Assembly: GCF_001017655.1 (NCBI RefSeq)
Contig: NZ_CP010904.1
Coordinates: 2,010,001 to 2,042,000, forward strand
Reading direction: 5' to 3'
Origin: Kiritimatiella glycovorans
Lineage (GTDB): Bacteria; Verrucomicrobiota; Kiritimatiellia; Kiritimatiellales; Kiritimatiellaceae
DNA length: 32,000 bases
A program made the translations under genes and the position numbers. Shown piece after piece: positions 5,691 to 26,323 of the stretch (positions are counted from its first letter, which is position 1; every line of letters starts with the position of its first letter). The notes under the pieces are model-generated. The model ran no database searches. It saw only the letters and a program-made list of their open reading frames with translations, and was not told where the DNA came from.

Positions 5691-6424
5691 GAGGATCTCC
5701 TCCCGCAGACCGGGCAATCCGCGTTCCGCTTTACGGGTAGGCGGCGGAACGACATCTCCGCCAGGTCCATCCTGAGCAGCACGCCGGTCAGCAGCGTCCC
5801 GAACCCGCAGATCAGCTTGATGGCCTCCATCGCCTGCAGCGCACCGAGCACGCCGGGCAGCGGGCCGGGCGGACCGACAGGGCGGTCGTTTCCGTCCGGA
5901 GGCAGTTCGGGAAACACGCAACGATAGCACGGGCTTTCGCCGGGGCGGACGGTCATCACTTCGCCTTCGCACCCCGCCAGTCCGGCATGCACGTAGGGCC
6001 GCCCCAGCCGGTGCGCCTCGCGGGCCAGGATGGCGCGCGGCGCGAAGCGGTCCACCGCGGCAAGCACGACATCGACCCCCTCCATCAATGAAGGCGCCGC
6101 AGCCTCGTCCAGGGCGCGCGGTTCGGATTCGACCCGGATGCCGGGGTTGAGCGCCGCGAGCCGTTCCGCGGCCGCTTCGGCCTTGAGCCGCCCGACGTCC
6201 GACGCCGCGTACAGCACCTGGCGCTGAAGATTACTCTCCTGCACGCGGTCAGGGTCCGCCACGCGCAGCCGTCCCACCCCGGCCGCGGCGAGGTAGAGCA
6301 ACGCGGGGGAACCGAGCCCGCCGGCGCCGGCGACGAGTACGGCAGCGGCGGCGAGCCGCCGCTGCCCCTCCGGCCCGATCTCGGGCAGGTCGAGCTGACG
6401 CCGGTAGCGTGCTTCGAAGTTCAC
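5687..6424 (-). CDS. thiF: ThiF/MoeB-type adenylyltransferase (E1-like)
   Basis: RYRRQLDLPEIGPEGQRRL...VLVAGAGGLGSP...DPDRVQESNLQRQ plus two CxxC pairs (CYRC, CPVC). It sits between thiH and thiE in the thi operon. Confidence 0.85.
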   Translation of the reverse strand: MNFEARYRRQLDLPEIGPEGQRRLAAAAVLVAGAGGLGSPALLYLAAAGVGRLRVADPDRVQESNLQRQVLYAASDVGRLKAEAAAERLAALNPGIRVESEPRALDEAAAPSLMEGVDVVLAAVDRFAPRAILAREAHRLGRPYVHAGLAGCEGEVMTVRPGESPCYRCVFPELPPDGNDRPVGPPGPLPGVLGALQAMEAIKLICGFGTLLTGVLLRMDLAEMSFRRLPVKRNADCPVCGRRSS

Positions 6425-7530
6425 CGGTAGACCGCCTCCCAGTTCTTGAAGACCGGCTCGAGGTTCGCGGCCCGGAGCATCGCGCAGAACTCGTCGATGC
6501 CGCGTCCGTCGCTCACCTCGAACTGCCCCTCGGAGTACTGCGTCCGGCCGCTGTAGCCCCCGACCGTCGTCCGGCTGGCCACGCTCATTTTCGAAATCCC
6601 CACGCCGGCCATGCCGTCGCGCAAGGCGGGGCGCTCCCGGGTGGACAGCACCAGCGGGACATCCGGGAGACAGAGTCGGAAGGCATAGATGAACTGGGCC
6701 AGCTCGCGATCGGACACGGGAAAGTCCGGCCGGAACCCACCCTCCTGGTCGCGGATCCTGGGGAACGATATAGAGATACCGCTGCGCCAGTACTGTTTGC
6801 GGAGCGCCGCGGCGTGCCGGTAGAGCGCGAGCAGATCGTAACGGGGATCCGAAAGGCCCAGCAGAGCGCCGAGGCCCGCGAATCGAAGACCCGCCCGCAG
6901 CGCCCGTTCCGGCGCGTCGAGTCGCGCGCGATAATCCCGTTTCGGCCCCCAGCGGTGAAATCTCTCGTATCGCCCGGGGTCGTACGTCTCCTGGTAGAGC
7001 GTCAGGCCCGAGCAGCCGGCTTCGGCGAGGCCGCGGTATTCCCCGGTTTCCATGGGGAAGACTTCCACATTGACGTTATGGAAATGGCGGGCGGCCCGCG
7101 CGACGCAGTCGCGCACATAGGCGTAGTCCGCGCCGGGACAGCGCTCCCCCGTCAGGAGCAGCACTTCCTCGAACCCCATCGATTTCAGCGCGTCCATCTC
7201 GTCCTCGCTCTGTTCCGGCTCGAGACGATGACGGGGCGCGGCGCGGTCCGAGGCGAACCCGCAGTAGAGGCAGCCGCCGGGACAATGGCTGGAAAGGTAA
7301 AGAGGAACATAGAGCTGAACGGTGCGGCCGAAGTGACGCCGCGTCAGCGCCTGCGCCCTGCGTGCCATCGGTTCGAGCAGCGCCCCGGCCGCAGGCGAAA
7401 GCAGGGCCGCCAGCTCCCGCGGCCCGGGTTCATCCGACGCGAGGGCGCGCATCGCATCCTCGCGGCGTGCTCCGCCGCGGGCCGCAGCGAGCCACGGCCG
7501 CGGGTCGATCTGTTCAGGCACTTCGTTCAT
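6421..7530 (-). CDS. thiH: 2-iminoacetate synthase (tyrosine lyase, radical SAM)
   Basis: The [10 protein letters not shown]... start at 7530 overlaps the thiG stop (ATGA). The radical-SAM cluster motif [10 protein letters not shown] and the C-terminal ThiH region (ISFPRIR...[13 protein letters not shown]) are present. The track ORF extension to 8307 is an artefact inside thiG. Confidence 0.9.
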
Positions 7531-8318
7531 TCGTCCCTGTGCTCCGCCCCGAGAAACGAGGTCAGAGGACTGGTCGCTTCCGCCGAGGCGCCCTGCGCCA
7601 TGAGGCCGGCGCGGCGCGCCGCGCGGCCGGCGCGCACGGCGTCCGCGAAGGCCGCCGCCATCGCGGCGGGGTCCTCCGCCGCGGCGACCGCGCTGTTCAC
7701 CAGTACGGCGTCGCAGCCCGCCTCCAGTGCGGCGGCAGCTTCCGACGGCGCGCGCAACCCGGCATCCACGATGACCGGAATCCGGCTCTCGCGGACGATC
7801 AGCCGCACCATGGCCATCGTCGTCAATCCCTGCCCGGACCCGATCGCGGCGCCGAGGGGCATCACGGAGGCGCAGCCCGCCTCCTCCAGCCGCTTGGCCA
7901 GCACGGGGTCGGCCGCGATGTAGGGCATCACGTGGAAGCCTTCCTTCACGAGCCTTTCCGCCGCGGCCAGCGTCTCGACGGGATCGGGCATGAGGTGGTG
8001 CGGATTGGGATGGATCTCGAGCTTGACGATATCGCTGCCGCTCAGCTCGCGCCCCAGCCGGGCCGCGCGGCACGCCTCGTCCGCGTCCCGCGCGCCGGAG
8101 GTGTTCGGCATCAGCGCGATGCCTTCGAGGGACGCGAGCGGCGCATAGAGATCGTCCTCCGTCTTCTCCCGATTGAACCTGCGCAGCGCCACGGTGATCA
8201 GTTCCGCGGCCGAGGCGCGCACCGCGGCGCACATGCTGTCGCCGTCCGCGAACTTCCCCGTGCCGAGGATCAGGCGCGAACTGAACTTGTGAGGCCCGAT
8301 TTTCCATTCATCCTTCAT
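7527..8318 (-). CDS. thiG: Thiazole synthase
   Basis: [23 protein letters not shown]...[16 protein letters not shown]...[13 protein letters not shown]...[27 protein letters not shown] is a canonical ThiG sequence. The ATG is at 8318. Confidence 0.93.
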
Positions 8319-8344: not shown

Positions 8345-8545
8345 CTACCCGCCCCCGGCGAACACGAGAATCTCGACGCCGTCGCCATCTTCCAGCACGG
8401 TCGAAGCCCGCTCGGCGGAGGGCACGACTTCGCCGTTGCGCAGCACGGCCACACGGCGTTCGGCGGCGCCGAAGGCGCGCACCAGCTCCTCTGCGGTCGC
8501 TCCGTCCTTCATCTCCCACGATTCGCCGTTCACCGTCAGGTGCAT
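8345..8545 (-). CDS. thiS: Sulfur-carrier protein ThiS
   Basis: 66 aa, MHLTVNGES...[10 protein letters not shown], with the diagnostic C-terminal GG. A GGAGGAG Shine-Dalgarno lies upstream. It is the first gene after the TPP riboswitch. Confidence 0.85.
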
Positions 8546-8567
8546 GGTCCGCTCCTCCGAAACGCGA

Positions 8568-8597
8568 AAGGGACGCCGTTTAACGGGCGTCCCTTAT
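8568..8597 (-). terminator. Riboswitch expression-platform hairpin (putative intrinsic terminator)
   Basis: On the minus strand, GGGACGCC-CGTTAAAC-GGCGTCCC (8-bp GC stem, 8-nt loop) is followed by TTTCGCGTTTCGG. It lies between the THI-box aptamer and the thiS Shine-Dalgarno. Confidence 0.6.
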
Positions 8598-8599
8598 CA

Positions 8600-8698
8600 T
8601 GCTCCAACGCTCCCTGCGCCGGCATTATCCGGGTCAGGTTCATCGGGTATGATCTCAGCTCTCCGGCCCGCGCCGGGGCACCCCGTTTCAAGTACGCC
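8600..8698 (-). promoter_or_regulatory. TPP (THI-box) riboswitch
   Basis: The minus strand reads GGGGTGCCCCGGCGCGGGCCGGAGAGCTGAGATCATACCCGATGAACCTGACCCGGATAATGCCGGCGCAGGGA. It contains the conserved GGGGUGC, CUGAGA, ACCC, AACCUGA and CCGGAUAAUGCCGGCG.AGGGA elements, directly upstream of thiS. Confidence 0.92.
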
Positions 8699-8818
8699 GC
8701 CGAGGGTAGCTGCCGGAGGCTTCAAAGTAAAGGGCCGACTGCGGATGCGGATCAGCGGGGCGCATCGAAAACCCGTTTACCTGCCACGGTTTCTCTCCTA
8801 CGCTTGTCGCGATGCCGC

Positions 8819-9592
8819 ATGGGTCAGAACAGACGTCGTCCTAATAACAGTCCGCCCGAGAACGAGGCCGTTTTTCGTTTCTACGAGGAACTGAACGACT
8901 TCCTTCCGCCGGAGAGCCGGAAGCGCGATATCCGGTATGCGTTCGGCGGCCGGCCGGGGATCAAAGATCCCCTTGAGGCGCTCGGAGTGCCTCATACGGA
9001 AGTCGATCTGATCCTCGTGAACGGAATTTCCCGGGGCTTCGACTACCGGCTGTGCGACGGCGACCGCGTCTCGGTGTACCCGGTCTTCGAGTCGCTGGAC
9101 CTCGCGCCTCTGATCCGCCTCCGGCCGGGACCTTTGCGGCGGACGCGTTTCGTCCTCGATGTCCACCTCGGCAAACTGGCGCGGTACCTTCGCTTGCTGG
9201 GGTTTGACACCCTTTACCGAAACGACTACGGCGACCCTGAACTCGTACGCATCTCTGTCGAAGAGGGGCGGATTCTTCTGACGCGCGATCGCCGGCTGCT
9301 TTTTCACCGCGCCGTGACCCGCGGGTACTGGGTGCGATCCACGCGGCCCGAGCGGCAGGTCCGCGAAGTGGTGCGCCGTTTCGACCTTGCCGCGCGGATC
9401 AAGCCTTTCCACCGCTGCGCCGTCTGCAACGGGATCATCGAACCCGTGGCCAAAGGAGAAATCGCCCATCGTCTGCAACCGCTCACCCGGAAGTATCACC
9501 GGGACTTCTCGCGCTGCCGGTCCTGCGGAAAGATCTACTGGAAGGGCTCGCATTACGAACGGCTTCTGGAAAGGCTGGAGATCGGCCATTAG
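8819..9592 (+). CDS. Mut7-C RNase-domain protein with N-terminal ubiquitin-like (Ub-Mut7C) domain and C-terminal zinc ribbon
   Basis: From the ATG at 8819 (MGQNRRR...). The N-terminal beta-grasp-like segment is FRFYEELNDFL...VDLILVNG...GDRVSVYPVF. The PIN-like Mut7-C core is RFVLDVHLGKLARYLRLLGFDT...ILLTRDRRLL. The protein ends CAVCNG...CRSCGKIYWKGSHY. The track ORF start at 8540 lies inside the riboswitch region and is rejected. Confidence 0.75.
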   Translation: MGQNRRRPNNSPPENEAVFRFYEELNDFLPPESRKRDIRYAFGGRPGIKDPLEALGVPHTEVDLILVNGISRGFDYRLCDGDRVSVYPVFESLDLAPLIRLRPGPLRRTRFVLDVHLGKLARYLRLLGFDTLYRNDYGDPELVRISVEEGRILLTRDRRLLFHRAVTRGYWVRSTRPERQVREVVRRFDLAARIKPFHRCAVCNGIIEPVAKGEIAHRLQPLTRKYHRDFSRCRSCGKIYWKGSHYERLLERLEIGH

Positions 9593-10035
9593 GCCTCGCC
9601 CAGGGCTTCGAGATCAGCCAAGTCTTTCTGCCGGCCGGAGGCGCGTTTGTTTGCCACGAACTCTGATCTGCCGATGTAGGCCACGGGAACGTCACCGAAT
9701 ACGCCAAGCTCCTTGTGAGCCTGCACTTCCTCCCATGTGACCCCGGATATAGACGTGATGAGGTCCACCCGAACCGGTGGAACGCCTAGTTGCACCACCT
9801 TCTCAGGCTTCTGAAAATCCTCAGTGTCGAGATCGGAGGATTGAAAACCGAAAGCAACGAGGGCGCTTAAAATGCGCTCCGCGTTCTCCGGTGCAGGACG
9901 CACAAATACGTCGATATCACCTGTGAAACGTGGTGCACCATGAAAGGCCAGCGCGTATCCACCCACGATGAGGTATTCAACCTTGTGCGCGTTCAATAAC
10001 TCGAGCAGATCTCTGAAGTCTGGTTGTACTTCCAT
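9589..10035 (-). CDS. Minimal nucleotidyltransferase-fold protein (Pol-beta/MNT-like) of unknown function
   Basis: MEVQPDFRDLLELLNAHKVEYLIVGGYALAFHGAPRFTGDIDVFV carries the hGG...DhDh NTase signature. The C-terminal KRASGRQKDLADLEAL motif is typical of this widespread uncharacterised family. G+C is visibly lower than in flanking genes. Confidence 0.65.
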   Translation of the reverse strand: MEVQPDFRDLLELLNAHKVEYLIVGGYALAFHGAPRFTGDIDVFVRPAPENAERILSALVAFGFQSSDLDTEDFQKPEKVVQLGVPPVRVDLITSISGVTWEEVQAHKELGVFGDVPVAYIGRSEFVANKRASGRQKDLADLEALGEA

Positions 10036-10162
10036 GGTATTGACGGCGCAGCAGTTCAACCGTGCTGACGCGCTCCTCAGGGCTCCGCGACATCCAATAG
10101 GACAGATCTTCATGTCCGGATTGATCACGCAAGCTTCGCTTCGATATGACTCTCTGCATCAT
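9977..10162 (-). CDS. Small hypothetical protein (61 aa), putative partner of the downstream nucleotidyltransferase
   Basis: MMQRVISKRSLRDQSGHEDLSYWMSRSPEERVSTVELLRRQYHGSTTRLQRSARVIERAQG. The pattern (acidic segment, YW.S.SPEERL..., then RL.R..RVIER) resembles small proteins I recall next to this NTase family. It overlaps the NTase start by 59 nt in a different frame. There is no recognisable Shine-Dalgarno. Confidence 0.45.
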   Translation of the reverse strand: MMQRVISKRSLRDQSGHEDLSYWMSRSPEERVSTVELLRRQYHGSTTRLQRSARVIERAQG

Positions 10163-10168
10163 GCCTGC

Positions 10169-10196
10169 ATGCTATCAGAATAGAGGGGTAAGTAAA
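10169..10196 (-). promoter_or_regulatory. Putative sigma70-like promoter giving a near-leaderless transcript for the small ORF/NTase pair
   Basis: On the minus strand, TTTACT (10196-10191), a 16-nt spacer and TAGCAT (10174-10169). The ATG at 10162 lies 6 nt after the -10 element. This is a pattern match only. Confidence 0.3.
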
Positions 10197-10511
10197 TCAG
10201 TCTCTCTTGCCGAACGCCCTCACCTTCGGCACAACGGGCTCCTTTTTCGGAGACCGCCGCTCGGTGATACATGCGGGCATGTGGATTCAAATTCGCTGTC
10301 GGGTTCGAAATGGGATAGACCATGAAGGACATGAAGGTTGTTTGAGGGGGAAGGAGGAATCAGAGTAAAAGAGAATTGAAATCGGGATCGGGATCCAAAT
10401 TGAGCTTCACCACAGATCACAGAGAACATGATTCGTACTCCTACGCGTACTCGGAGTGCCGAAGGTACGATCCTGTTCCCCGATTCCGGGATCTCGGGCA
10501 CGAGGGCCGCT

Positions 10512-11054
10512 TTACTCTCTTTCTGACGCTGACGCTTCCTGCTTCTCCCACCGCTCCAGGGCGTTCCGGTACACGTCTCGGTCGGATTCGCTGAAGCAGC
10601 AGAGAATGACTTCCATGCGGGGATGATCCGACAGGAAATCCCCGATCGTCCGCACCGCGATCCCCGCGGCTTTTTCGACGGGAAAACGGTAGGCGCCGGT
10701 ACTGATTGATGGGAAGGCGACGGAAGTAAGGCCGCGTTCGGCCGCCACTTCCAGCGAGCGGCGGTAACAGCATTCGAGCAGGTCCGCTTCACCAGAACGC
10801 CCGCCTTTCCATACCGGCCCGACCGTATGGATCACGTGGTTCGCGGGCAGATGGTACCCGCCGGTGATCTTCGCCTCGCCGGTGGGGCAGCCGCCGAGTC
10901 TCCGGCACTCCTCCAGAAGTTCGGGGCCCGCGGCCCGGTGGATCGCACCGTCCACCCCGCCTCCGCCCAGGAGGCGGGTGTTGGCGGCATTGACCACCGC
11001 GTCGACCTCCAGCGTGGTGATATCGGCGCACAGGACCTTTATACGCGTTTTCAT
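10512..11054 (-). CDS. ymdB: Macro-domain protein (O-acetyl-ADP-ribose deacetylase / ADP-ribose-binding, YmdB-like)
   Basis: CADITTLEVDAVVNAAN..LLGGGGVDGAIHRAAG...C.TGEAKIT.GY.LPA..VIHTVGP...SVAFPSISTGAYRFP are canonical macrodomain motifs. A GGGAGG Shine-Dalgarno lies upstream. Confidence 0.9.
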   Translation of the reverse strand: MKTRIKVLCADITTLEVDAVVNAANTRLLGGGGVDGAIHRAAGPELLEECRRLGGCPTGEAKITGGYHLPANHVIHTVGPVWKGGRSGEADLLECCYRRSLEVAAERGLTSVAFPSISTGAYRFPVEKAAGIAVRTIGDFLSDHPRMEVILCCFSESDRDVYRNALERWEKQEASASERE

Positions 11055-17026: not shown

Positions 17027-17315
17027 TCGCCGCTCCGAGCCCTCCCGCACTTCCGGCTTGACTCTGTTTTTCGGCTCCGCTACCCTTTCTTTCCTTAACG
17101 GCTAACGGCTGATGGAACGCGGATCGCTCAGGCGGTACGCTGTTCGCTTGCCGGACGGTCCTGCGCGGAGACCTTGCGCTCCCGCACCGTCCGCGAGTCG
17201 CCCGATATTTCCGCCGCAGAAAGGCGCAGGCGTCTACCGGACGCGCGCCGCGGCCTGCAGATGCGCGAAAGGAGCTGAATCGTTCGCGCGCCACTAATAC
17301 GAAAGGAGAAACGTT

Positions 17316-18773
17316 TTGGAAAAACTCAAACACGATAAGCCGGGGCTGCCCTCTTCGCTCTACCGTCCTCTGACGGAAGGCGGCGTGGAGAACATCGCCG
17401 ACGCCGCGTTCGAGGTGCTCGAAAAATCGGGCATGGCCGTCTACTCCGAGACCGCCTTCGAGGCGCTCAAAGCCGCGGGCGCGCAGACCGATTCCGCCTC
17501 CCGGACCGTCCGCTTTCCCCGGTCGATGGTCGAGGACGCGATTGCGTCCAATCCCTCCTCCGTCACGCTTCACGCCCGCGACCCCGAATATAATGCCGTA
17601 CTGGAAAAGAACCGGGTTCACTACGGCACCGGCGGAACCGCGATCTATGTGATCGACCCGATCACCGGCGAACGGCGCCAGTCGAATCTCTCCGACGTCG
17701 CGCTCAATGCGCGCATGGTCGACGCGCTCGATCACATCCATGTCTTCACGATCAACGTCTTTCCCAACGAGATCACCGATCCCGATCTGATCGACACCAA
17801 CCGCTTCTTCCACGCCCTCAATCACACCCGCAAGCACGTCATGGGCGGCATCTACTCGATGAAGGGCTGCCGCAGCGTGGTCAAAATGGCCGAGATGATC
17901 GCCGGCGGCGAGGGCGCGCTGCGGGCCAAACCCTTCGTCTCGTTCATCACGCTGATCATCAGCCCGTTCAAGATCGACGACAGCTACGGCGAGATCACCT
18001 GCTACCTCGCGCAGGAGCACCTCCCCGTGGTGGTGCCCACAGAGCCGATCTGCGGCACGACCGCCCCGATCACCCTCGCGGGCAACGTCCTGACGCACAC
18101 GGCCGAGACGCTCGCAGGCATCACCCTCGTGCAGTCGGTCAGCCGGGGCGCCCCCGGCATCTGCGGGAGCGTGGGATCGACCACCAACCTCAGCAACATG
18201 GACCATCTCGGCGGATCGATCGAGCGGGCCATGATCAATTCCGCCGTCTCGCAGATGGCGCAGCACTTCGAGATCCCGCTCTATTCGACCGGCGGCACCT
18301 CGGACGCGAAGGAGGTCGACGTCCAGGCCGCGTACGAAACCTCGATGTCCAGCCTGCTCGTGGCCATGTCGGGAGCGAATTACATCCACGACATCGCCGG
18401 TCTCATGGAGGCCGACCTCACCGTGGCCTACGACAAGCTGGTGCTCGACAACGAGATCCTCGGCATGTGCCAGCGGGTACTCCGCGGCGTGGAGGTCAAC
18501 GATGAAACCCTCGCCAAGGACCTGATCATCGAAAAGGGACCCACGGAGGATTACCTCACGGAGGAACATACCATCGAGCACATGCGCGACGAGTTCTTCG
18601 TCCCGAAGCTCGCGAACCGGGATAAGCGCGAGCACTACGACGCCGGGAACAGCGCCCTCGCCCGCGCACGCAAGTACGTGCAGGAATTCTGCGAGACCCC
18701 GCCCGGGAATCTGCTCGACGAGAATCTCCGGACGCAGATCCGCACGGAATTTCCGGAAATCCGGGACGTATAG
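17316..18773 (+). CDS. MttB-superfamily (trimethylamine methyltransferase family) protein, non-pyrrolysine, paralog 1
   Basis: 485 aa from a TTG start, with AAAGGAGA 5-6 nt upstream. Family-typical segments: IADAAFEVLEKSGMAV, FPRSMVEDAI...PSSVTLHARDP, HYGTGGTA, PFVSFITLIISP, LPVVV...CGTTAPITLAG, and the C-terminal DNEILGM..R.L.G.EV..ETLA. There is no in-frame UAG. Confidence 0.88.
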   Translation: MEKLKHDKPGLPSSLYRPLTEGGVENIADAAFEVLEKSGMAVYSETAFEALKAAGAQTDSASRTVRFPRSMVEDAIASNPSSVTLHARDPEYNAVLEKNRVHYGTGGTAIYVIDPITGERRQSNLSDVALNARMVDALDHIHVFTINVFPNEITDPDLIDTNRFFHALNHTRKHVMGGIYSMKGCRSVVKMAEMIAGGEGALRAKPFVSFITLIISPFKIDDSYGEITCYLAQEHLPVVVPTEPICGTTAPITLAGNVLTHTAETLAGITLVQSVSRGAPGICGSVGSTTNLSNMDHLGGSIERAMINSAVSQMAQHFEIPLYSTGGTSDAKEVDVQAAYETSMSSLLVAMSGANYIHDIAGLMEADLTVAYDKLVLDNEILGMCQRVLRGVEVNDETLAKDLIIEKGPTEDYLTEEHTIEHMRDEFFVPKLANRDKREHYDAGNSALARARKYVQEFCETPPGNLLDENLRTQIRTEFPEIRDV

Positions 18774-18857
18774 CGCGAACCGTCACAGAGCAAAACGGAG
18801 CAGTCCGTGCCCCTGCACCTGCGGGGGCACGATCCTACCACGAAACGACAGGAGCAG

Positions 18858-20354
18858 ATGACGATGACGAACGCCACGAAGCAACGCGAAGGGGTGCTGG
18901 TTAAACCGAAGTGCCGGCTCTCGGAAGACCAGATCGCACAGATCGACCGGATGTCCCGCGAACTTCTCGAAAACCCGGGACTGATCTGCTACAATGCGCA
19001 GACGGCCGAACTGCTGAAAGAGGCCGGGGCCGAGGTCCAGGAGGAGACCTCGGAATACACCCGCATCCGCATCCCCTCGAGCCTGATCGACCGCGTCGTC
19101 GAAAGTGCGCCCTCAACCGTCACCCTCGGCGCCCGCAACCCGGACAACCGGCTGGTCCTCGACGCGCACGAGCCGCGCGTACGCTTCGGCAGCGGGTCGG
19201 AAACCAATTTCTGGCTCGATCTGGATTTCGAAAACGGCAAGCCTGTCTTCACGCGCAAACCCGGATCGATCGAACAGCTCTGCCGGACCGCCCGGCTCTG
19301 CGACCGGCTCGAAAACCTCGATTTCTTTATCCGCTGCATCAATATCCGTGACCGGGACATCGACGAGACCAACAAGGACGTCAACAAGTTCCTCGCCAGC
19401 CTGAATAACATCACCAAACACGTGCAGGCGGGCCTCACGTCGCTGGACGCGCTCGAGGATGTGCTCAACATCGGCCGGATCATCGCGGGCGGCGAGGACG
19501 CCTTTCGCGAGAACCCCGTGCTCTCGTTCATCACCTGCGTCATCAAGAGCCCGATGCAGGTGACCGACGACACGGCGGACAAGCTGATCGCCATCGCACG
19601 CGCCGGGGCGCCGGTGGTCATCTCGAGCTGTCCGATGGGCGGCGCGACGGGGCCGTTCGACGAGTTCGGCATGGTCGCGCAGATCAACGCCGAGCTGCTC
19701 GCCGGCGTCTGCATCAACCAGTGCGCGAACCCCGGCGCCCCCGTCCTCTACGGGGCCGTTCCGGTGCGCACGCGGCTGGACAACCTGAACGACATGTACG
19801 GGGCTCCGGAATTCGTCCATTACAACCTCGACTGCGCCCAGATGGCCCGCCACTACGGCCTCCCCTGCTACTCGACCGCGGGCGTGGCCGACACGTCGGA
19901 ACCGGGCATCCAGGCCACCGTCGAAAAGATGCTGACCTACATGACGGTGCCTCAGGGCGGTGCGCAGTATATCCACTACGCCTTCGGGCTGCTCGAGCGC
20001 ACGAACACGTTCTCGCCCGAACAGGCGATCCTCGACGACGCCCAGATCGGCATCGCGAAGCGCGCCCTGGCCGAACCGGACGTGTCGGAAGAGCGGTACG
20101 ACGAGGTCCGCGATACGATCCGCGAGGTCATGGACTCGGACCACAAGTCCTACGTCTACCACCTCCCCCTCCCGACCGAGGAACCCGTCTACGTCGCCTA
20201 CCCTTACGAAGACGGCGACGAGGGACCGCTCAAGGCCGCGCAGGAACGCTACCGCGAGATCCTCGCCGAGCCCGCGGAACCGCTTCCGGAAGATATCCTG
20301 CAACGGCTGCGCGACGAAGTGCCCGGCATTCTCGACGCGACGCTCAAGAGCTGA
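18858..20354 (+). CDS. MttB-superfamily protein, non-pyrrolysine, paralog 2 (divergent from paralog 1)
   Basis: ATG at 18858 preceded by ACAGGAG; the track ORF starts at an upstream GTG (18807). IDRMSRELLENPGLIC, IPSSLIDRVVESAPSTVTLGARNP, PVLSFITCVIKSP, APVVISSCPMGGATGP and LDDAQIGIAKRAL align by eye with paralog 1 at roughly one third identity. There is no in-frame UAG. Confidence 0.85.
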   Translation: MTMTNATKQREGVLVKPKCRLSEDQIAQIDRMSRELLENPGLICYNAQTAELLKEAGAEVQEETSEYTRIRIPSSLIDRVVESAPSTVTLGARNPDNRLVLDAHEPRVRFGSGSETNFWLDLDFENGKPVFTRKPGSIEQLCRTARLCDRLENLDFFIRCINIRDRDIDETNKDVNKFLASLNNITKHVQAGLTSLDALEDVLNIGRIIAGGEDAFRENPVLSFITCVIKSPMQVTDDTADKLIAIARAGAPVVISSCPMGGATGPFDEFGMVAQINAELLAGVCINQCANPGAPVLYGAVPVRTRLDNLNDMYGAPEFVHYNLDCAQMARHYGLPCYSTAGVADTSEPGIQATVEKMLTYMTVPQGGAQYIHYAFGLLERTNTFSPEQAILDDAQIGIAKRALAEPDVSEERYDEVRDTIREVMDSDHKSYVYHLPLPTEEPVYVAYPYEDGDEGPLKAAQERYREILAEPAEPLPEDILQRLRDEVPGILDATLKS

Positions 20355-20390
20355 AGCGACCCATCCCCAACGACGACAAGGAGCGACATC

Positions 20391-21689
20391 ATGGCCCCGA
20401 ACTACAAAGCCGACGACCAGATGCCCGCCTACAGCGAGGCCGTAAAGAGCGGACTCTACGCCAAGAAGAGCGGGCTCACCGGCAAGTACGACAACGTGCG
20501 GCGCTACTGGGAGGACGAGATCACGCGTCATTTCCTCTACCGCCCCATCCACCAGGCGGTGGAACGCTGCCGCTGCGAGATGCGCCGGCTGCGCATCATG
20601 GACCTCGGCTGCGGAAGCGCCGACGGCTACGAGCTGCTGGCCGGCATCCGCGACCGGGATTCCGACCTGCAGGACGACGAGGTGCACCTGCTCGACCCCG
20701 ATGTGCTCGGACTCTATCACGGCACGGACCTGAACGAGGATCTGCTCGACCAGGGCCGCGCGATCTACGGGAACGATCCCAAGCTGCGCTTCTCCCAGGC
20801 GGACTTTTCTCAGGGCATCCCGATCGAGAAAGGCGACAAGCCCTACGACCTGTACTTCACGTCGTTCGGAACCTGCTCGCACCACACCGACGACCGGAGC
20901 TTCGTGCGGATGATGACGGATATCGCGCGCAAGACCGAGAGCTACGCGGTGGTGGTCTGCGACTGGCTCGGGCGTTATTCGTATGAATGGCAGACGCTCT
21001 GGACCAACGATCCCTCACAAAACCGGGTGATGGACTACGTGGTCTCGTACATCTACGACAAGGAGGAACGCGAGCAGCGGCGCGATGAACTCCAGCACCT
21101 GAACCTGCGGCTGATGAGCCGTCCGGAGATCGATAAGCTCATCGCCCAGGCGTCGCAGCGCGCGAAGGTCGAGATCAAGCCCACGCGCTTCTTCGACCGT
21201 TCGGTCTTCGTCGGCCGCCACCTCGACACCGGCGAGTACAATCCCCACGCGCAGCCGATCCGCGCCGCGGTCAACTCGCTGCACGAACCGAACCAGCGAA
21301 CCGACCTCAGCACGCTGCTGATCAACTACTGCCCGCGCGAGGGGTTCGAAACCATCAACGACTACTTCGAAAACCTCCAGCTCTGCTGGAACACGGTGGT
21401 CAAGGACGCGATGAAGCAGCTCGTCAATTACAACCCGGACCGCCAGGAATACATGGAGAAACCGCCCCCCATCCCCAATTCCTACCCCCAGGTGCTGCGC
21501 ACCGCGCTGGAACGCATGCGGCGGATCATTGAAGGCGTCGGGTGGCTGCACGCCGGCCTGCCCCGCGAGAACATCATCGAGCCCCAGCTCGGGTACGCGC
21601 TCCGCTCGCTGGAGATGGGCCTCCAGCGGGGACAGGGCTGCTCGCACGGCCTCGTGGGCGTGTTCGAAATCGACAAAACGGGGAAATAG
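20391..21689 (+). CDS. Class I SAM-dependent methyltransferase with a large uncharacterised C-terminal region
   Basis: 432 aa, with an AAGGAG Shine-Dalgarno. Rossmann MTase motifs: motif I IMDLGCGSADG, acidic motif II YHGTDLNEDLL, FSQADF, and motif IV YDLYFTSFG. About 235 residues after position ~195 match nothing I recognise. Confidence 0.7.
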   Translation: MAPNYKADDQMPAYSEAVKSGLYAKKSGLTGKYDNVRRYWEDEITRHFLYRPIHQAVERCRCEMRRLRIMDLGCGSADGYELLAGIRDRDSDLQDDEVHLLDPDVLGLYHGTDLNEDLLDQGRAIYGNDPKLRFSQADFSQGIPIEKGDKPYDLYFTSFGTCSHHTDDRSFVRMMTDIARKTESYAVVVCDWLGRYSYEWQTLWTNDPSQNRVMDYVVSYIYDKEEREQRRDELQHLNLRLMSRPEIDKLIAQASQRAKVEIKPTRFFDRSVFVGRHLDTGEYNPHAQPIRAAVNSLHEPNQRTDLSTLLINYCPREGFETINDYFENLQLCWNTVVKDAMKQLVNYNPDRQEYMEKPPPIPNSYPQVLRTALERMRRIIEGVGWLHAGLPRENIIEPQLGYALRSLEMGLQRGQGCSHGLVGVFEIDKTGK

Positions 21690-21691
21690 CC

Positions 21692-23215
21692 ATGTGCGGA
21701 ATCGCCGCTCTCTGGAATCAGCGCAACGACGCCATGCTCGACGCCATGCTCGAGCGGGTGGTTCACCGCGGGCCCGACGAACACGGGACGCACCACAACC
21801 GCCGCGGGTCGCTCGGCCACCGGCGTCTTTCGATCATGGATCCGGAGGGCGGACACCAGCCGATCCTGTCCGGCGACGGCCGCCGCGCCGTCATCGCCAA
21901 CGGGGAGATCTACAACTTCCCGTCGCTCCGCCCGGAGCTGGAGAAGGAGCACCGATTCCGTTCGCGCAGCGACAGCGAGGCTCCGCTCCATCTCTATGAG
22001 GACCTCGCCGACCGCGCCGCGGACCGGCTGGACGGCATGTACGCCTTCGTGGTGGCCGACGACGAGCAGCTCTATGCCGCGCGCGATCCGGTGGGCATCA
22101 AGCCGCTGTACCTGGGCCGGACGCCGGAGGGACCGGTCTTCGGTTCGGAACTCAAACAATTCGACGGGCTCACCTCGGAGGTCAGGGAATTCCCCCCCGG
22201 CACCTGTTATCACACGGAACACGGCTGGCGGACCTTCGCCCCCATCCCCGAGAGGGAACCCGAAGAAGGCCGGAGCACGGAGGACTGGTGCTCGGAAATC
22301 CGCACCACCCTCACGAACTCCGTGACTAAACGCATGATGAGCGACGTACCCGTGGGCGCGTTCCTCTCCGGCGGACTCGACAGCAGCCTGATCGCGGCGA
22401 TCATCCGTCGGCAGGTCGAGGAGCTGCACACGTTCTCGGTGGGGGTCGAGGGCAGCCGCGATATCCAGGCCGCCCGCCTCGTGGCCCGCCACATCGGCAG
22501 CATCCACCACGAGTACGTCTTCACCGAAGAGGAAGTGCGGGACGCCCTGCCCGAGATTCTCTATCATCTGGAATCCTTCGACCAGGACCTGGTGCGCAGC
22601 GCGATCCCCTGTTACTTCACCTCGCGCCTCGCCGCGCAGCATGTGAAGGTCATCCACACGGGAGAAGGCGCCGACGAACTTTTCGCGGGATATACCTATG
22701 TGAAGGACATCGATCATCACGACGACCTGCACAACGAACTCTACCGCAGCGTGACCGCGCTGCATAACATCAACCTGCAGCGGGTCGACCGCCTCACCAT
22801 GGCCCACTCACTCGAAGGCCGCGTGCCGTTTCTGGATCTGGACATGATCGAACTGGCCCAGCGGATTCCCGCCCGCTTCAAGCTCTGGAGAGACGAGCAG
22901 GGTCAGCCGGTGGAGAAGTGGATTCTGCGCAAGGCGTTCGAGGATTTGCTCCCGGAGGAAATCGTCTGGCGCGGCAAGGAACAGTTCGACGAAGGCAGCG
23001 GAACGGTGGATATCATCGAGCGCGGCATCCGCCATTTCATTCGTCCGGAGACGGCCGCGGAGTACAGCCGCTCGCAGTCCGGACACCGTCTGCGCTCCCC
23101 GGAAGAATGCGCCTACCACAAGGTCCTCGCCGACCAGTTCGAAACCCCGGAACTCGTCCTCAGCAATGTCGGCCGCTGGGCCGACCGCCCGGAGGGTAAC
23201 GAACTCCCCGGTTAA
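21692..23215 (+). CDS. asnB: Asparagine synthetase B-type glutamine-hydrolysing amidotransferase
   Basis: MCGIAALW (N-terminal Cys2 nucleophile), RGPD, HRRLSI.D...GHQP, and the PP-loop SGGLDSS. The ATG at 21692 lies 2 nt after the methyltransferase stop. The track ORF start at 21542 is an upstream extension inside the methyltransferase gene. Confidence 0.9.
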   Translation: MCGIAALWNQRNDAMLDAMLERVVHRGPDEHGTHHNRRGSLGHRRLSIMDPEGGHQPILSGDGRRAVIANGEIYNFPSLRPELEKEHRFRSRSDSEAPLHLYEDLADRAADRLDGMYAFVVADDEQLYAARDPVGIKPLYLGRTPEGPVFGSELKQFDGLTSEVREFPPGTCYHTEHGWRTFAPIPEREPEEGRSTEDWCSEIRTTLTNSVTKRMMSDVPVGAFLSGGLDSSLIAAIIRRQVEELHTFSVGVEGSRDIQAARLVARHIGSIHHEYVFTEEEVRDALPEILYHLESFDQDLVRSAIPCYFTSRLAAQHVKVIHTGEGADELFAGYTYVKDIDHHDDLHNELYRSVTALHNINLQRVDRLTMAHSLEGRVPFLDLDMIELAQRIPARFKLWRDEQGQPVEKWILRKAFEDLLPEEIVWRGKEQFDEGSGTVDIIERGIRHFIRPETAAEYSRSQSGHRLRSPEECAYHKVLADQFETPELVLSNVGRWADRPEGNELPG

Positions 23216-23367: not shown

Positions 23368-24105
23368 TTATGAACTGATCTTCATTGTTCCCTTGCACGC
23401 CGGGTAACCGGAGCAGCCCCAGAAGGGCTTCCCGGCCATATTCCCGGTTTTCGCGGTGCGTTTGATCATCGGCTTGCCGCACCTGGGACAGTCCGGCGGT
23501 GATCCGGAGCCGCCGTCACCGGACCCGGAGTTCTCCCGCGGGCGCGCGCCATCCCCCGCCCGCGCCAGCGCGTGTCCTTCGCGGTGTCCGCCCTGATCCC
23601 CGAACTTGTTTTCCATCGAAGCGATCCGGCGATCGAGCAGGTCGTTTACCCGTTCGATCAGGCAGATCACCGCGTTGGCCGTTACGGCCGGATCGTCGTG
23701 TTCCAGCCAGCGTGCGTAAAGGGCTTCGCGCTCCTGGTCGGTCAGATCCGACCGACCGGATCCCTCCACGGCCTGCACAGCAGCCGCTTCAGACCCCTCG
23801 TCCTCCCAGAGCGGCAGGCGCCGGCGCCGCAGGATGTCCTCAAAGTCGAGCAGCAGCTCCTCCAGCCTCGCACGCGCCGCATTCATCCGCCGGAGTTCCG
23901 TCCGGGGAGAGGACGCGGAGTGGCGGCACGCTCCCACGATGTGCAGCCGCCCCGAACGCGCGGCCCGGATCATCCGTTCCGCGGCCCCGGATTCCGATTC
24001 CAGGTGTTTTCTGCCGAACCGGTACGTGGCGTCGTAGATGAGGGTGGCGGTCTGGAAGCTGCGGGTGCGGCGGTATCCTCCGTCGGTGCGTGGTTTTCCG
24101 GACAT
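23368..24105 (-). CDS. Four-helix-bundle-suffix-domain protein fused to a topoisomerase-type C4 zinc finger
   Basis: From the ATG at 24105. GGYRRTRSFQTATLIYDATYRF......MIRAARSGRLHIVGA......E..RMNAARARLEELLLDFEDILRRRRLPLWE...........YARWLEHDDPAVTANAVICLIERVNDLLDRRI resembles the four-helix-bundle-plus-suffix family. After a Gly/Ser linker comes CPRCGKPMIKRTAKTGNMAGKPFWGCSGYPACKG (zf-C4_Topoisom pattern). The longer track ORF (to 24618) runs into ftsW. Confidence 0.7.
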   Translation of the reverse strand: MSGKPRTDGGYRRTRSFQTATLIYDATYRFGRKHLESESGAAERMIRAARSGRLHIVGACRHSASSPRTELRRMNAARARLEELLLDFEDILRRRRLPLWEDEGSEAAAVQAVEGSGRSDLTDQEREALYARWLEHDDPAVTANAVICLIERVNDLLDRRIASMENKFGDQGGHREGHALARAGDGARPRENSGSGDGGSGSPPDCPRCGKPMIKRTAKTGNMAGKPFWGCSGYPACKGTMKISS

Positions 24106-24188
24106 GGGACGGCTCCTGGTTGGGGGTGAAAAACCGGGAGTGGACTCGGGAAAAGTTCGAGACGGATAAGCAGACGACCAGAATCCGG

Positions 24189-25340
24189 TTAAACTCTGTT
24201 GCCCTTTTGTCCGCGCCCCGCATTCAGGATCAGTCCGATCATCGCGCCGGTGACGATCAGGCTCGATCCGCCGTAGCTGATAAAGGGCAGCGGAAGACCT
24301 TTGGTGGGAAGACAGCCGGTGACCACCCCCATGTTGATCAGGCCCTGAAGGGTGATCATGAAAACCACGCCCAGCACCGTATGGCGCATAAACCGGTCGC
24401 CGGCCGCCGTCGCCACACGCATGCCGCAGAGAAAGAACACCACGAACAGGAGGAGCACGGCGCCGCTGGCGATGAGCCCCAATTCCTCCGCCATGATCGC
24501 GAAAATGAAATCCGTATGGGCCTCCGGAAGGTAGAACCGCTTCTGAATGCTCTCCCCGAGGCCGACGCCGCAGAGCCCGCCTTCTCTGAAGGCGCACAGC
24601 GAATTGACGAGCTGCCACGCGTCGCTGCGCACATATTCACCCGGATTGAGAAAGGCCAGGATGCGGCCCATCCGTTCCGGGTTGTGCATGATCAGGATGC
24701 TCAGGGCCGACATGCCGAGCAGCCCCACAATGATGATATATCCCACGTGCGCCCCCGCCGCATACATCAGCAGGAGTCCCGAAAACAGGACCAGCATGGT
24801 CGTGCCGAAATCCGGTTCAAACAGGATGAGCACGCCGGTGAGCCCCAGGCAGGCCAGCGGCATCAGGAATCCCTTCCGGATCTCGCTTCCCTTCCTCCAC
24901 CGCGGCGACATCCACCAGGCGATCAGCAGGATGGATCCCAGCTTGGCGGCCTCCGAGGGCTGGAACGTGACCGCGCCCACTTTAATCCAGCGATGGCTGC
25001 CGTTCACCTCGTGGCCGATCACGGGAAACCAGACCGCGAGGAGCAGAAGCAGCGAGACCCCCCAGGCCGGAAGGGCCCAGCGCCGCAGATAATCCGCGGG
25101 GATACGGGCGGTGATCAGCGCCGCCGCGAATGCAAGGACCAGCCATATCGCCTGTCGCTTGACAAAAAAATAAGGATCGCCGAAGCGGTGGGCGGCGCTC
25201 ACGCTGCTCGCGCTGGCCAGCATTACGAATCCGAAGGTGGCGAGAATAAGCACGGCCCCGACCAGAAGCCGCAGCGCATAGGATCCGTCCTGACCGCGCG
25301 CGGCATCCTGATCGGTCGAAGACCACGCCATGCGCCTCAA
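24189..25340 (-). CDS. ftsW: SEDS-family peptidoglycan glycosyltransferase FtsW
   Basis: Multi-TM SEDS protein: GSHRWI, FQPSE.AK, PDFGT, LPEAHTDFIFA...EELG, G..P.KGL.LPF.SYGGSS. It lies in dcw context after murD. The track start is a TTG at 25340 abutting the LysM gene stop; an in-frame ATG at 25331 is an alternative. Confidence 0.88.
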   Translation of the reverse strand: MRRMAWSSTDQDAARGQDGSYALRLLVGAVLILATFGFVMLASASSVSAAHRFGDPYFFVKRQAIWLVLAFAAALITARIPADYLRRWALPAWGVSLLLLLAVWFPVIGHEVNGSHRWIKVGAVTFQPSEAAKLGSILLIAWWMSPRWRKGSEIRKGFLMPLACLGLTGVLILFEPDFGTTMLVLFSGLLLMYAAGAHVGYIIIVGLLGMSALSILIMHNPERMGRILAFLNPGEYVRSDAWQLVNSLCAFREGGLCGVGLGESIQKRFYLPEAHTDFIFAIMAEELGLIASGAVLLLFVVFFLCGMRVATAAGDRFMRHTVLGVVFMITLQGLINMGVVTGCLPTKGLPLPFISYGGSSLIVTGAMIGLILNAGRGQKGNRV

Positions 25341-26323
25341 TCTCCGACGGGTACGAGGATGGTCTGCCCCTGCTGAAGCTGAACCGGGCCTCTGAGCTCG
25401 TTAAGGTCCCTGAGTTTATCGACGGTGGTCGCGTACTGGCGGGCGATCTCCTCGAGCGTCTCACCGGGATAGACCACGTGTTCCATGACCGTCGGGGCCG
25501 CGGCCGGGGACTCCGCCTCTTCCTCCTCGGCGGGGGCCTCCCCTTCGGGAGCCGCGGGAGCCGCCGGTTCCGGCGTCATCGCCGGGGTGGACTCTTTTTC
25601 GCCGTCTTCCGGTCTTTCGCGTTCAGGCGGCTCCGCGGCAGACGTTGTTGTTCCGCCCGGAACCACCAGTTCCTGGCCGACGATGATCCGGTCGCCGCGA
25701 AGGCCGTTGACGTCGCGGAGTCTGTCGAGGGCCACGTTAAAACGCTGCGCGATTTGCGAAAGCGTGTCTCCGCTCTTGACCACGTAGATCTCTCCGTCGC
25801 CGGCCTCCGCGCCGGACTCCCGCACCGCGCCGGGCGAAGGCGCCGACGGCCGGGCGGCGGGTTCGGCCGCATAGGGAGGAAGGAGCAGATCCTGGCCGAC
25901 CACGAGCCGGTCGGGGTTCTGAATCTCGTTGAGTTCGACCAGCGTAGACACACTGATGTCATGCCGGTACGCAATGGCAGAGAGGGTATCGCCCTTGCGG
26001 ATGGTGTAGTGCTTGTACTCGGGCTCGGGCATCGGCGCCGGCTCCGGGGCCATGTCGCTCTCGAAAATCGGTTCCGCGGGAGCCACGGGTTCGGGCTCGC
26101 TCACTTCCGGGGGCAGGTCGGTCGGCGGCGGGGGATCCACATGCCGCGGCACACTCACGTTTTCCATCCATTCCGGGGTTGTTGAGCACCCCTGCACCAA
26201 AAAAATTCCCGCGGCTACCAGCAGATGCGCCGCCATGACCCAGAAAAGAGCTTTCATCAGTACGTGGCCTCCCGTTCGGTGTGACGCCCGGTGCCCCGAG
26301 CGCTTCGCTCTATTTGTATTCAT
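25337..26323 (-). CDS. Lipoprotein with three LysM peptidoglycan-binding domains and Pro/Glu-rich linkers
   Basis: The lipobox LVQGC follows the hydrophobic segment LFWVMAAHLLVAAGIF. Three LysM repeats are present: YTIRKGDTLSAIAYRHDISVSTLVELN, YVVKSGDTLSQIAQRFNVALDRLRDVN and HVVYPGETLEEIARQYATTVDKLRDLN. The ATG at 26323 overlaps the murD stop (ATGA); an internal ATG at 26257 (MKALF...) is an alternative. No peptidase domain was recognised. Confidence 0.8.
   Translation of the reverse strand: MNTNRAKRSGHRASHRTGGHVLMKALFWVMAAHLLVAAGIFLVQGCSTTPEWMENVSVPRHVDPPPPTDLPPEVSEPEPVAPAEPIFESDMAPEPAPMPEPEYKHYTIRKGDTLSAIAYRHDISVSTLVELNEIQNPDRLVVGQDLLLPPYAAEPAARPSAPSPGAVRESGAEAGDGEIYVVKSGDTLSQIAQRFNVALDRLRDVNGLRGDRIIVGQELVVPGGTTTSAAEPPERERPEDGEKESTPAMTPEPAAPAAPEGEAPAEEEEAESPAAAPTVMEHVVYPGETLEEIARQYATTVDKLRDLNELRGPVQLQQGQTILVPVGD

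Follow-up and report, generated by a model that had tools for sequence, protein, structure and literature searches.

A conserved gene module joining paired MttB paralogs, a new methyltransferase family and asparagine synthetase in Kiritimatiella glycovorans

The stretch of Kiritimatiella glycovorans DNA analysed here (32,000 nt of contig NZ_CP010904.1, referred to below as the window and numbered from its first letter) carries four consecutive genes for two MttB-superfamily paralogs, MttB1 and MttB2, a predicted S-adenosylmethionine (SAM)-dependent methyltransferase, which we call MT, and an AsnB-type asparagine synthetase (Table 1). We show that this cassette is the Kiritimatiella version of a conserved, horizontally mobile gene module. 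The four genes lie on a single strand with intergenic gaps of 84, 36 and 2 nt, and each has its own Shine-Dalgarno sequence, AGGAG before the starts of MttB1, MttB2 and MT and GGGGA before asnB. The GC content of third codon positions (GC3) is 0.80-0.89 in the called frames of the four open reading frames (ORFs), which supports those frames. Terminator-like sites are no commoner in a terminator scan than in shuffled sequence, with none in the gaps between the four genes and a single weak match inside the MT gene. Common strand, short gaps, terminators at chance level and an order conserved elsewhere are consistent with an operon, and the layout described in the initial annotation of this DNA is borne out by the ORFs, the domain scores and GC3.

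MT relatives are present in 236 GTDB species genomes; 80 loci were fetched for synteny and a metagenome scan added 80 more, the related loci numbering 166 overall. The synteny denominators 75 and 71 are loci with sufficient flank, and the 'well-flanked' loci of the branch counts have at least 3 kb on both sides. MttB2 lies directly 5' of MT in all 75 loci with enough flank, an MttB1 ortholog (63-73% identical) is present in 57 of 71, sitting downstream of MT in Spirochaetota, and a ProV-type ABC ATPase gene is found directly 3' of MT in 45 of 71. The core proteins are 60-73% identical across about ten phyla: MT relatives with 60-70% identity come from Planctomycetota, Kiritimatiellota, Lentisphaerota, Verrucomicrobiota, Spirochaetota, Latescibacterota, Hydrogenedentota, Gemmatimonadota, Rhodothermales and Anaerolineales. 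Judging by the record titles, many of the source genomes are from soda lakes, Great Salt Lake and marine and sulfidic sediments.

An AsnB ortholog (54-65% identical) occurs in 16 related loci, on the same strand, and a divergent AsnB-like paralog in 29; a gene of either kind is found in 38 of 80 loci, on the MT strand in 38 of 38. Because AsnB-family genes are present in only 17 of the 39 well-flanked loci of the window's MT branch, and alternate there with a ProA+GCS2 pair, the four-gene set is not the conserved unit, and its exact order is rare among related loci. The conserved core is MttB1-MttB2-MT. Co-occurrence of the four families, as proposed from the window, therefore stands as a real functional unit, given the unbroken MttB2-MT adjacency and the natural AsnB::MT fusions described below, and falls as a conserved gene order. 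Our literature searches gave no description of the module or of the MT family, and nothing relevant on MttB in these phyla, in agreement with the earlier remark that no pathway with this gene set was known. The combination of genes, the MT family and the pocket signature of the MttB pair are new, while the components are of known kinds (MttB superfamily, class I methyltransferase, AsnB, Opu).

A new family of class I SAM methyltransferases forms the invariant element of the module. A K. glycovorans protein that carries the annotation 'class I SAM-dependent methyltransferase' matches the window MT at 100% identity. The only Pfam match of MT is sub-threshold (Methyltransf_25, 23.3 bits, cut-off 27), it has no NCBIfam match, and phmmer finds no sequence match in the PDB at E <= 1, the family profile giving weak generic matches there (E >= 1e-4). 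An AlphaFold2 model (pLDDT 70.9, pTM 0.74) shows a Rossmann methyltransferase core of seven strands with an N-terminal helical segment and a helical C-terminal extension of about 130 residues, and a Foldseek search with this model returns class I methyltransferases at probability 1.0, all of them generic small-molecule enzymes. DLGCG, D113, D138 and D153 are invariant, and the motifs invariant throughout the family include DLGCG, GK(Y/H)DNVRxYWED, DRSxFxGRHxDT and EPQL. The modelled core with its invariant DLGCG vindicates the initial assignment as a long SAM methyltransferase, and we predict that MT is a class I SAM-dependent enzyme. The family is small and discrete, because a profile search of 1.84 billion protein representatives returned only 321 members. 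Homolog clusters number about 1,900 for the window MT and about 700 for a sister branch, MT-II.

The neighbours of MT differ between the branches into which its sequences cluster. The window's branch, MT-I (83 loci, 55 well-flanked), has MttB in 55 of 55 loci, Opu in 38, GCS2 in 25, ProA in 24, AsnB in 19, the AsnB-like paralog in 11 and a corrinoid protein in 3. MT-II (52 loci, 18 well-flanked) comes from Myxococcota, Binatia, Nitrospiraceae and others; it is 33-38% identical to the window MT, and many invariant motifs are common to both. Here AsnB is encoded directly upstream of MT in 15 of 18 loci, in many cases so closely that start and stop codons overlap; next come an ABC ATPase and a permease/OpuAC fusion (Opu in 11 of 18), and MttB is present in 0 of 18. 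Smaller branch C (9 loci, 3 well-flanked) has the order ProA-GCS2-MttB1-DUF362-MT-Opu with no MttB2, and branch D (13 loci, 4 well-flanked) has ProA-GCS2-MT-Opu, sometimes followed by a corrinoid protein and an MttB. The MttB paralog pair is an addition in the halophile/anaerobe branch. Since MT-II keeps the AsnB-MT-Opu arrangement with MttB in none of its 18 well-flanked loci, MT must be independent of MttB and corrinoid chemistry, and this rules out a role of MT as a MetH-like corrinoid reactivation enzyme or a methylcorrinoid acceptor. Rieske/LigXa_C-type oxygenase genes were seen near AsnB-MT-Opu genes of MT-II (L084 1-73, L085 13189-14421, L101 13187-14410); such oxygenases could be an oxygen-dependent counterpart of MttB demethylases.

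In two naturally fused proteins, P0155 (934 aa) and P0159 (901 aa), a full AsnB is joined to the N-terminus of MT. P0155 keeps Cys2; its AsnB::MT gene, on a contig of 70 kb, shares an operon with ABC ATPase, permease/OpuAC and MFS genes. Such fusions, together with the upstream position of AsnB in MT-II, make it implausible that asnB is a chance neighbour, and AsnB is a genuine functional partner of MT. The opposite view, named in the initial annotation as its refuter, takes asnB as the housekeeping asparagine synthetase and MT as unrelated to the MttB pair; it can point to the passing score of AsnB on its equivalog model and to the rarity of the exact four-gene order, and it is contradicted by the fusions, the overlapping AsnB-MT genes of the sister branch, the MttB2-MT adjacency in 75 of 75 loci, and the 54-65% identity of the module's AsnB across phyla, always on the same strand. 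We consider it extremely improbable.

The window AsnB scores 538.6 bits on the NCBIfam AsnB equivalog model PRK09431 (cut-off 499). The MCGIAAL start (Cys2) and the PP-loop AFLSGGLDSS are present, so that both features claimed for it earlier are indeed intact. It is probably a bona fide glutamine-hydrolysing asparagine synthetase, with aspartate as the substrate suggested by the equivalog-level score. The other MT-linked AsnBs, including the fused one, reach 565-621 bits against the same cut-off, and the window AsnB is 50% identical to that of the AsnB-MT-Opu operon of Labilithrix. The AsnB-like paralogs, which stand alone or adjoin a true AsnB (for example, L042 14037-15500 and L020 5432-6964), score 332-341 bits on the equivalog model and are 32-37% identical to AsnB. 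Because their N-termini read MAGI or MSG instead of MCG, they are without the glutaminase cysteine nucleophile; their nitrogen source may be free ammonia or a different amine.

A bona fide ProA is always paired in related loci with a 450-aa GCS2/YbdK-type ligase (for example, L081 4082-6828 and L052 5474-6835), sometimes with an SDR gene. No ProB was seen beside these pairs, which may provide a ProB-independent route to glutamate semialdehyde or proline. Among MT-I loci whose flanks reach 7 kb or more upstream and 5 kb or more downstream, 13 have AsnB-family genes only, 21 have ProA/GCS2 only, none has both and one has neither. The two types are interleaved in a neighbour-joining tree of MT-I, and no column of the MT alignment separates them, the best reaching an accuracy of 0.86 (in a variable loop) against a baseline of 0.61; partner-specific residues in MT were rejected on these grounds. 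This suggests that AsnB and ProA+GCS2 are interchangeable around one MT chemistry. Both modules are ATP-dependent and both remove the omega-carboxylate charge of an acidic amino acid, AsnB being predicted to convert aspartate to its amide, and GCS2 with ProA to convert glutamate through an acyl phosphate to the aldehyde, towards pyrroline-5-carboxylate and proline.

The MT family is linked almost everywhere to an Opu/ProU-type quaternary-amine ABC importer, encoded in the order ABC ATPase, permease, OpuAC/OsmF-type binding protein and matching the ProV, OpuAC and OsmF models. Solved structures related to the binding protein comprise the Thermoanaerobacter OpuBC scaffold employed in acetylcholine and nicotine sensors, which is the closest, and Lmo1422, EgtUC (which binds ergothioneine), OpuCC, OpuBC and ProX, and those relatives that have functional names bind trimethylammonium compounds (choline, betaine, carnitine, ergothioneine). 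Among the products suggested initially, an N-methylated and amidated small molecule such as an osmolyte is the best supported, by the Opu linkage, the AsnB-MT fusions and the salt habitats, and modification of a macromolecule is disfavoured, as a linked quaternary-amine transporter argues for a small molecule. K. glycovorans itself grows at 60 g/l NaCl in a defined medium without betaines or vitamins (PMC5148204) and must, therefore, make its own solutes at this 6% NaCl; its describers predicted glycine betaine and sucrose from genome annotation alone (PMC5148204).

The commonest neighbour being an importer-type system, a purely catabolic or assimilatory role has also to be considered, whereby MttB1 and MttB2 would demethylate an imported quaternary amine, and MT and AsnB or ProA+GCS2 would be accessory enzymes modifying its substrate or product, or would assimilate the released nitrogen. 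Accessory modification of a substrate has a precedent in MthB, which requires prior phosphorylation of choline by the choline kinase MthK and acts on phosphocholine (PMC12155760), and corrinoid genes are present in 7 loci. Yet AsnB-MT-Opu exists without MttB in the sister branch (MttB in 0 of 18 loci), methylation at the expense of SAM and amidation at the expense of ATP and glutamine would be costly and illogical in catabolism, and no transporter adjoins the K. glycovorans cassette. We regard this role as rather unlikely.

Both MttBs belong to the MttB superfamily, their scores on Pfam MTTB (PF06253) lying far above the cut-off of 25 bits; the match of MttB2 spans profile positions 34-423 of 500. 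They are 30% identical to each other and have PDB relatives 2QNE, 9YCE and 7XCL, MttB1 being about 30% identical to the MtgB structures 2QNE and 9YCE (E = 4e-60). On TIGR02369 (cut-off 525) MttB1 scores 398 and MttB2 256 bits, which places them outside trimethylamine-MttB sensu stricto. At the position aligned with pyrrolysine of Methanosarcina barkeri MttB, the window genes have an ACC codon (Thr328) in MttB1 and Val in MttB2, with no in-frame UAG, and the orthologs have T (51) or M (5) and V (68) or A (2), respectively. An Rfam match in MttB1 to PYLIS_3, the pyrrolysine insertion element of mttB (38.2 bits, gathering score 38), begins at this same ACC codon and was rejected as coding homology. 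Read-through of the MttB1 amber stop, which is in frame with MttB2 and followed by no stop for 84 nt, looks like chance: among 40 related loci the MttB1 stop varies, 13 share the MttB2 frame and 8 of these are without a further stop. Long ORFs suggesting MttB1::MttB2 or MttB2::MT fusions in L011 and L072 are artefacts of ORF calling.

MtgB binds glycine betaine by Y97, R312, H348 and F356, and MtcB, MtpB, MthB and MtyB keep R312 for the anionic group (PMC13080624). Neither MttB1 nor MttB2 has this pocket. At the Y97 position MttB1 has G in its 56 orthologs, and MttB2 has S in 56 and A in 14 of its 70; at R312, H348 and F356 the residues are invariant in both ortholog sets, being Y, D and D in MttB1 and Y, Y and T in MttB2. 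Tyr at the R312 position is the residue of the pyrrolysine trimethylamine enzyme MttB, and the substrates of the pair are, therefore, not glycine-betaine-like and probably without an anionic group. The two subunits of the MtgB homodimer complete each other's pocket with their C-termini (PMC13080624), so by analogy a heterodimer of MttB1 and MttB2 is plausible.

Does the MttB pair act on a corrinoid protein? The annotated large ORFs of the window include none for a corrinoid protein, a RamA-type activase, a methylcorrinoid methyltransferase or a betaine transporter, and tblastn with corrinoid proteins gives no match in it. The reported absence of the usual MttB partners is, accordingly, correct for the cassette and its surroundings and does not extend to related loci, which have Opu genes in 45 of 71 cases and in which genes for B12-binding proteins (PF02607 with PF02310) lie inside 7 of 166 clusters, all with MttB. 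The corrinoid-protein gene comes directly after MttB1 in L016 and L032, and the order is Opu-Corr-MttB in L155, L156, L158 and L159. The seventh, metagenomic locus L164 (1-17251), joins the module to methyl-cycle and one-carbon (C1) genes: S-adenosylhomocysteine (SAH) hydrolase, ProA, GCS2, two MttBs, a corrinoid protein and MT are followed by FdhA-like, NuoEF-like, MetV, histidine kinase and MetF genes. Neither a methylcorrinoid:tetrahydrofolate (THF) or methylcorrinoid:coenzyme M methyltransferase nor a RamA-type activase occurs in the window or among the conserved neighbour families. A DUF362 protein with two [4Fe-4S] motifs is encoded between MttB1 and MttB2 in 12 of the 55 well-flanked MT-I loci, and takes the place of MttB2 in one branch (loci with the protein include L048 7127-8389, L146, L148 and L153); it is a possible candidate for the electron donor in corrinoid activation.

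The initial annotation had the MttB-fold proteins doing something other than corrinoid-dependent demethylation, and a corrinoid-independent reaction (binding or transfer within the methylation and amidation pathway), or modification of a macromolecule, would accommodate the lack of corrinoid, RamA and MT2 genes in the window, the rarity of corrinoid genes in MT-I (3 of 55), a pocket unlike that of every characterised member, and the strict MttB2-MT adjacency, which suggests a complex. The corrinoid genes inside seven related clusters speak against it, as does, if our reading of the DUF362 protein is right, the presence of the latter in 12 loci, and the linked quaternary-amine transporter again favours a small molecule. 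MttB genes, moreover, need not adjoin their corrinoid partner: in Ruegeria pomeroyi the mtgB genes are distant from mtgC and mtgD (PMC12478193). In view of this example and of the seven clusters, the missing corrinoid gene in the window is no evidence for corrinoid independence; such a role of the MttB-fold proteins has no positive support, and we hold it to be improbable.

What could, then, be the function of the module? We propose, at a probability of roughly 45%, that MT and AsnB make a betaine-type compatible solute, that the Opu system transports it, and that the MttB pair demethylates it or a related amine through a corrinoid protein. In this scheme AsnB would serve as a dedicated high-flux supplier of asparagine, neutralising the side-chain carboxylate of aspartate, and MT would use SAM to methylate the amino group, the product being a betaine-like solute, which a transporter, encoded elsewhere in K. 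glycovorans, would recapture or import. MttB1 and MttB2, probably as a heterodimer in the manner of the MtgB homodimer, would take methyl groups from the solute, or from a related quaternary amine lacking a carboxylate, and pass them to a corrinoid protein whose gene lies elsewhere, and the demethylation would serve solute turnover and recovery of methyl groups. The SAH hydrolase and MetF/MetV genes that adjoin the module in L164 are a sign of SAM demand.

Several points weigh against this proposal. Replacement of R312 by Tyr in both MttBs fits poorly with a substrate bearing an alpha-carboxylate; genes for synthesis and demethylation in one operon imply a futile cycle unless there is post-transcriptional regulation; the literature search found no betaine derived from asparagine or aspartate; and the 32 kb window has no transporter or corrinoid gene. 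The mutual exclusivity of AsnB and ProA+GCS2, taken with the lack of partner-specific MT residues, further indicates that asparagine is not simply the universal substrate, and the convergence of the two modules on one pathway is the main weakness of any specific product proposal. A more specific version, in which the members of the MT family form a new class of N-methyltransferases for amino acids or amides and make an undescribed solute (an asparagine-derived betaine in K. glycovorans) and the MttB pair is the first for a non-anionic quaternary amine, is accordingly a good deal more doubtful.

Known glycine-betaine synthesis clusters carry SAM-cycle genes, and the C1 genes of L164 admit another explanation for the MttB pair, as a supplier of methyl groups. 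MT and AsnB would still make a solute, and the pair would harvest methyl groups of an external carboxylate-free amine, passing them through corrinoid to THF or homocysteine and on into the SAM cycle. The Tyr shared at the R312 position with the trimethylamine enzyme and the two invariant Asp residues in the MttB1 pocket agree with such a substrate, and in L164 SAH hydrolase, MetF/MetV and a formate dehydrogenase-like gene stand by MttB-MttB-Corr-MT, with SAH hydrolase also in L146. SAM-cycle genes are, however, found in only 2 of 166 loci, a methylcorrinoid:THF or methylcorrinoid:homocysteine methyltransferase was seen in no cluster, an importable quaternary amine could itself serve as a solute, and tertiary amine demethylation without pyrrolysine has no known precedent. 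A methyl-supplying role appears unlikely, if somewhat less so than a purely catabolic one, and we retain the proposal of a betaine-type solute made by MT and AsnB.

The remaining features of the window and of related loci are of a different kind. Both flanks of the cassette hold housekeeping genes: upstream are tuf, trpD, thiamine genes, rpsD, pfk, a MalK-like ATPase gene and a tatB?/tatC/tatA group, and downstream is an inverted dcw cell-wall cluster. No Rfam family, and hence no riboswitch, reaches its gathering score upstream of the cassette, and a sigma-54 promoter match with 2 mismatches before MttB1 was rejected, 5 such matches being found against 9.3 expected by chance. Further away, a thiamine pyrophosphate (TPP) riboswitch precedes the minus-strand thiamine genes. 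An islet upstream combines an RNase, a nucleotidyltransferase and a macro-domain protein and may be a toxin-antitoxin or defence element. Two proteins flank ftsW at the edge of the dcw cluster, one with a C-terminal topoisomerase-type C4 zinc ribbon (its start is uncertain) and one with three LysM repeats. Neighbours in related loci also include MarC/NAAT transporter genes (13 of 55 well-flanked MT-I loci), MarR regulators (17 loci), MscS channel genes (8 loci) and MFS transporters (5 matches); of these, the MscS and MarC genes fit the osmotic setting of the proposed solute.

Table 1. Features of the K. glycovorans window, with positions counted from its first letter
Feature	Positions	Strand	Remarks
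ThiE	5061-5972	-	thiamine gene
ThiF	5687-6424	-	thiamine gene
Radical-SAM/BATS protein	6421-8307	-	thiamine gene
Islet	8540-11054		three genes below
Mut7-C RNase	8540-9592	+	with ubiquitin-like domain
TPP riboswitch	8593-8695	-	56 bits
AbiEii-like nucleotidyltransferase	9589-10128	-
Macro-domain protein	10512-11054	-
Upstream intergenic region tatA/MttB1	17027-17315	+	289 nt; presumed promoter region, no element identified
Sigma-54 promoter match (rejected)	17113-17128
MttB1	17316-18773	+	485 aa; TTG start; Pfam MTTB 308 bits
PYLIS_3 match (rejected)	18297-18396	+	in MttB1
MttB1 amber read-through (rejected)	18771-18857
MttB2	18858-20354	+	498 aa; ATG start; MTTB 217 bits; mechanical ORF from GTG 18807
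MT	20391-21689	+	432 aa; class I SAM-dependent methyltransferase (predicted)
Weak terminator match	20787-20801		inside MT gene
AsnB	21692-23215	+	507 aa; probable glutamine-hydrolysing asparagine synthetase; start 2 nt past MT stop
Proteins flanking ftsW	23368-26323	-	edge of inverted dcw cluster

The MT family, found in 236 species-level genomes and comprising roughly 2,500 protein clusters, is highly conserved, and no member has been studied. The transporter link and the AsnB fusion offer a concrete hypothesis for it, that of a new betaine-type solute and a new class of N-methyltransferases. The MttB pair, with an active-site signature unlike that of any characterised member, extends the superfamily into the Planctomycetes-Verrucomicrobia-Chlamydiae (PVC) group, Spirochaetota and further phyla not known as acetogens or methanogens. 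If the more specific version of our proposal is true, abundant anaerobic bacteria of sediments and hypersaline mats (Planctomycetota, Kiritimatiellota, Spirochaetota and others) both make and demethylate a betaine in a self-contained cycle that depends on a corrinoid. Among the non-competitive precursors of methane in saline anoxic sediments, methylated amines are the main ones, so that a bacterial sink or source of great size would affect the cycling of carbon and nitrogen. Most related loci come from PVC-group phyla, which are rich in sulfatases. In the hypersaline mat of Guerrero Negro MttB and sulfatases are over-represented more strongly than any other family (Kunin et al. 2008, PMC2483411), so the module may bear on the excess of MttB there, and a betaine cycle involving the MttB pair, if real, could help explain such an excess in hypersaline mats. 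The strict rule of AsnB or ProA+GCS2, and the apparently ProB-free ProA+GCS2 pair, are two further features deserving study.

Among known systems, the MttB pair is nearest to MtgB/MtgC/MtgA of Desulfitobacterium hafniense, MtpB, MtcB, MtyB and MthB of Eubacterium limosum, and MtgBCD of R. pomeroyi, with which it shares the PF06253 TIM-barrel and the lack of pyrrolysine. As in these quaternary-amine:corrinoid systems, related loci carry a betaine-type transporter and seven carry a B12-binding protein; a corrinoid partner encoded at another site has its parallel in R. pomeroyi; and, as with MthK and MthB, accessory enzymes may shape the substrate. In contrast to MtgB-type systems, two 30%-identical paralogs are paired, the R312-equivalent Arg kept by the characterised members without pyrrolysine is Tyr in both, in no cluster was a methylcorrinoid:THF methyltransferase or RamA seen, and the pair is coupled, unlike in any described MttB system, to a SAM-dependent methyltransferase. 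The hosts differ as well, K. glycovorans being a sugar fermenter and the related genomes being mostly uncultured metagenome-assembled genomes from phyla that are neither acetogenic nor methanogenic.

With the GSMT/SDMT methyltransferases of halophilic bacteria and Methanohalophilus, MT shares the class I SAM-dependent type, salt-adapted hosts and a link to osmoprotectant transport; SAM-cycle genes are possible in its clusters (L164), and repeated N-methylations by one enzyme family are conceivable. MT is, however, of no detectable sequence kinship with GSMT/SDMT, falling outside that family in the NCBIfam and PDB searches, with GSMT (5H02) ranking no higher in Foldseek than generic methyltransferases. 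It has about 430 aa with N- and C-terminal conserved motifs of its own, and its partners AsnB or ProA+GCS2 would be superfluous in the methylation of glycine. The pathway to N-acetylglutaminylglutamine amide (NAGGN), with AsnO and Ngg, likewise employs an AsnB-family amidotransferase for an amide-type solute, as we propose here, in a small, osmotically relevant operon. The window AsnB, unlike AsnO, reaches 267 bits on the NAGGN amidotransferase model (cut-off 570) and matches the true AsnB equivalog, and its partner is a methyltransferase instead of a GNAT/ATP-grasp enzyme. Diphthamide synthesis, to which the initial annotation drew attention, also combines SAM-dependent N-methylation with carboxylate amidation, the chemistry predicted for MT and AsnB. 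Its enzymes Dph5 and Dph6 belong to other families than the class I methyltransferase and AsnB of the module as these match in Pfam, and the ABC importer for quaternary amines that accompanies the module suggests that a free small molecule, and not a residue in a protein, is modified.

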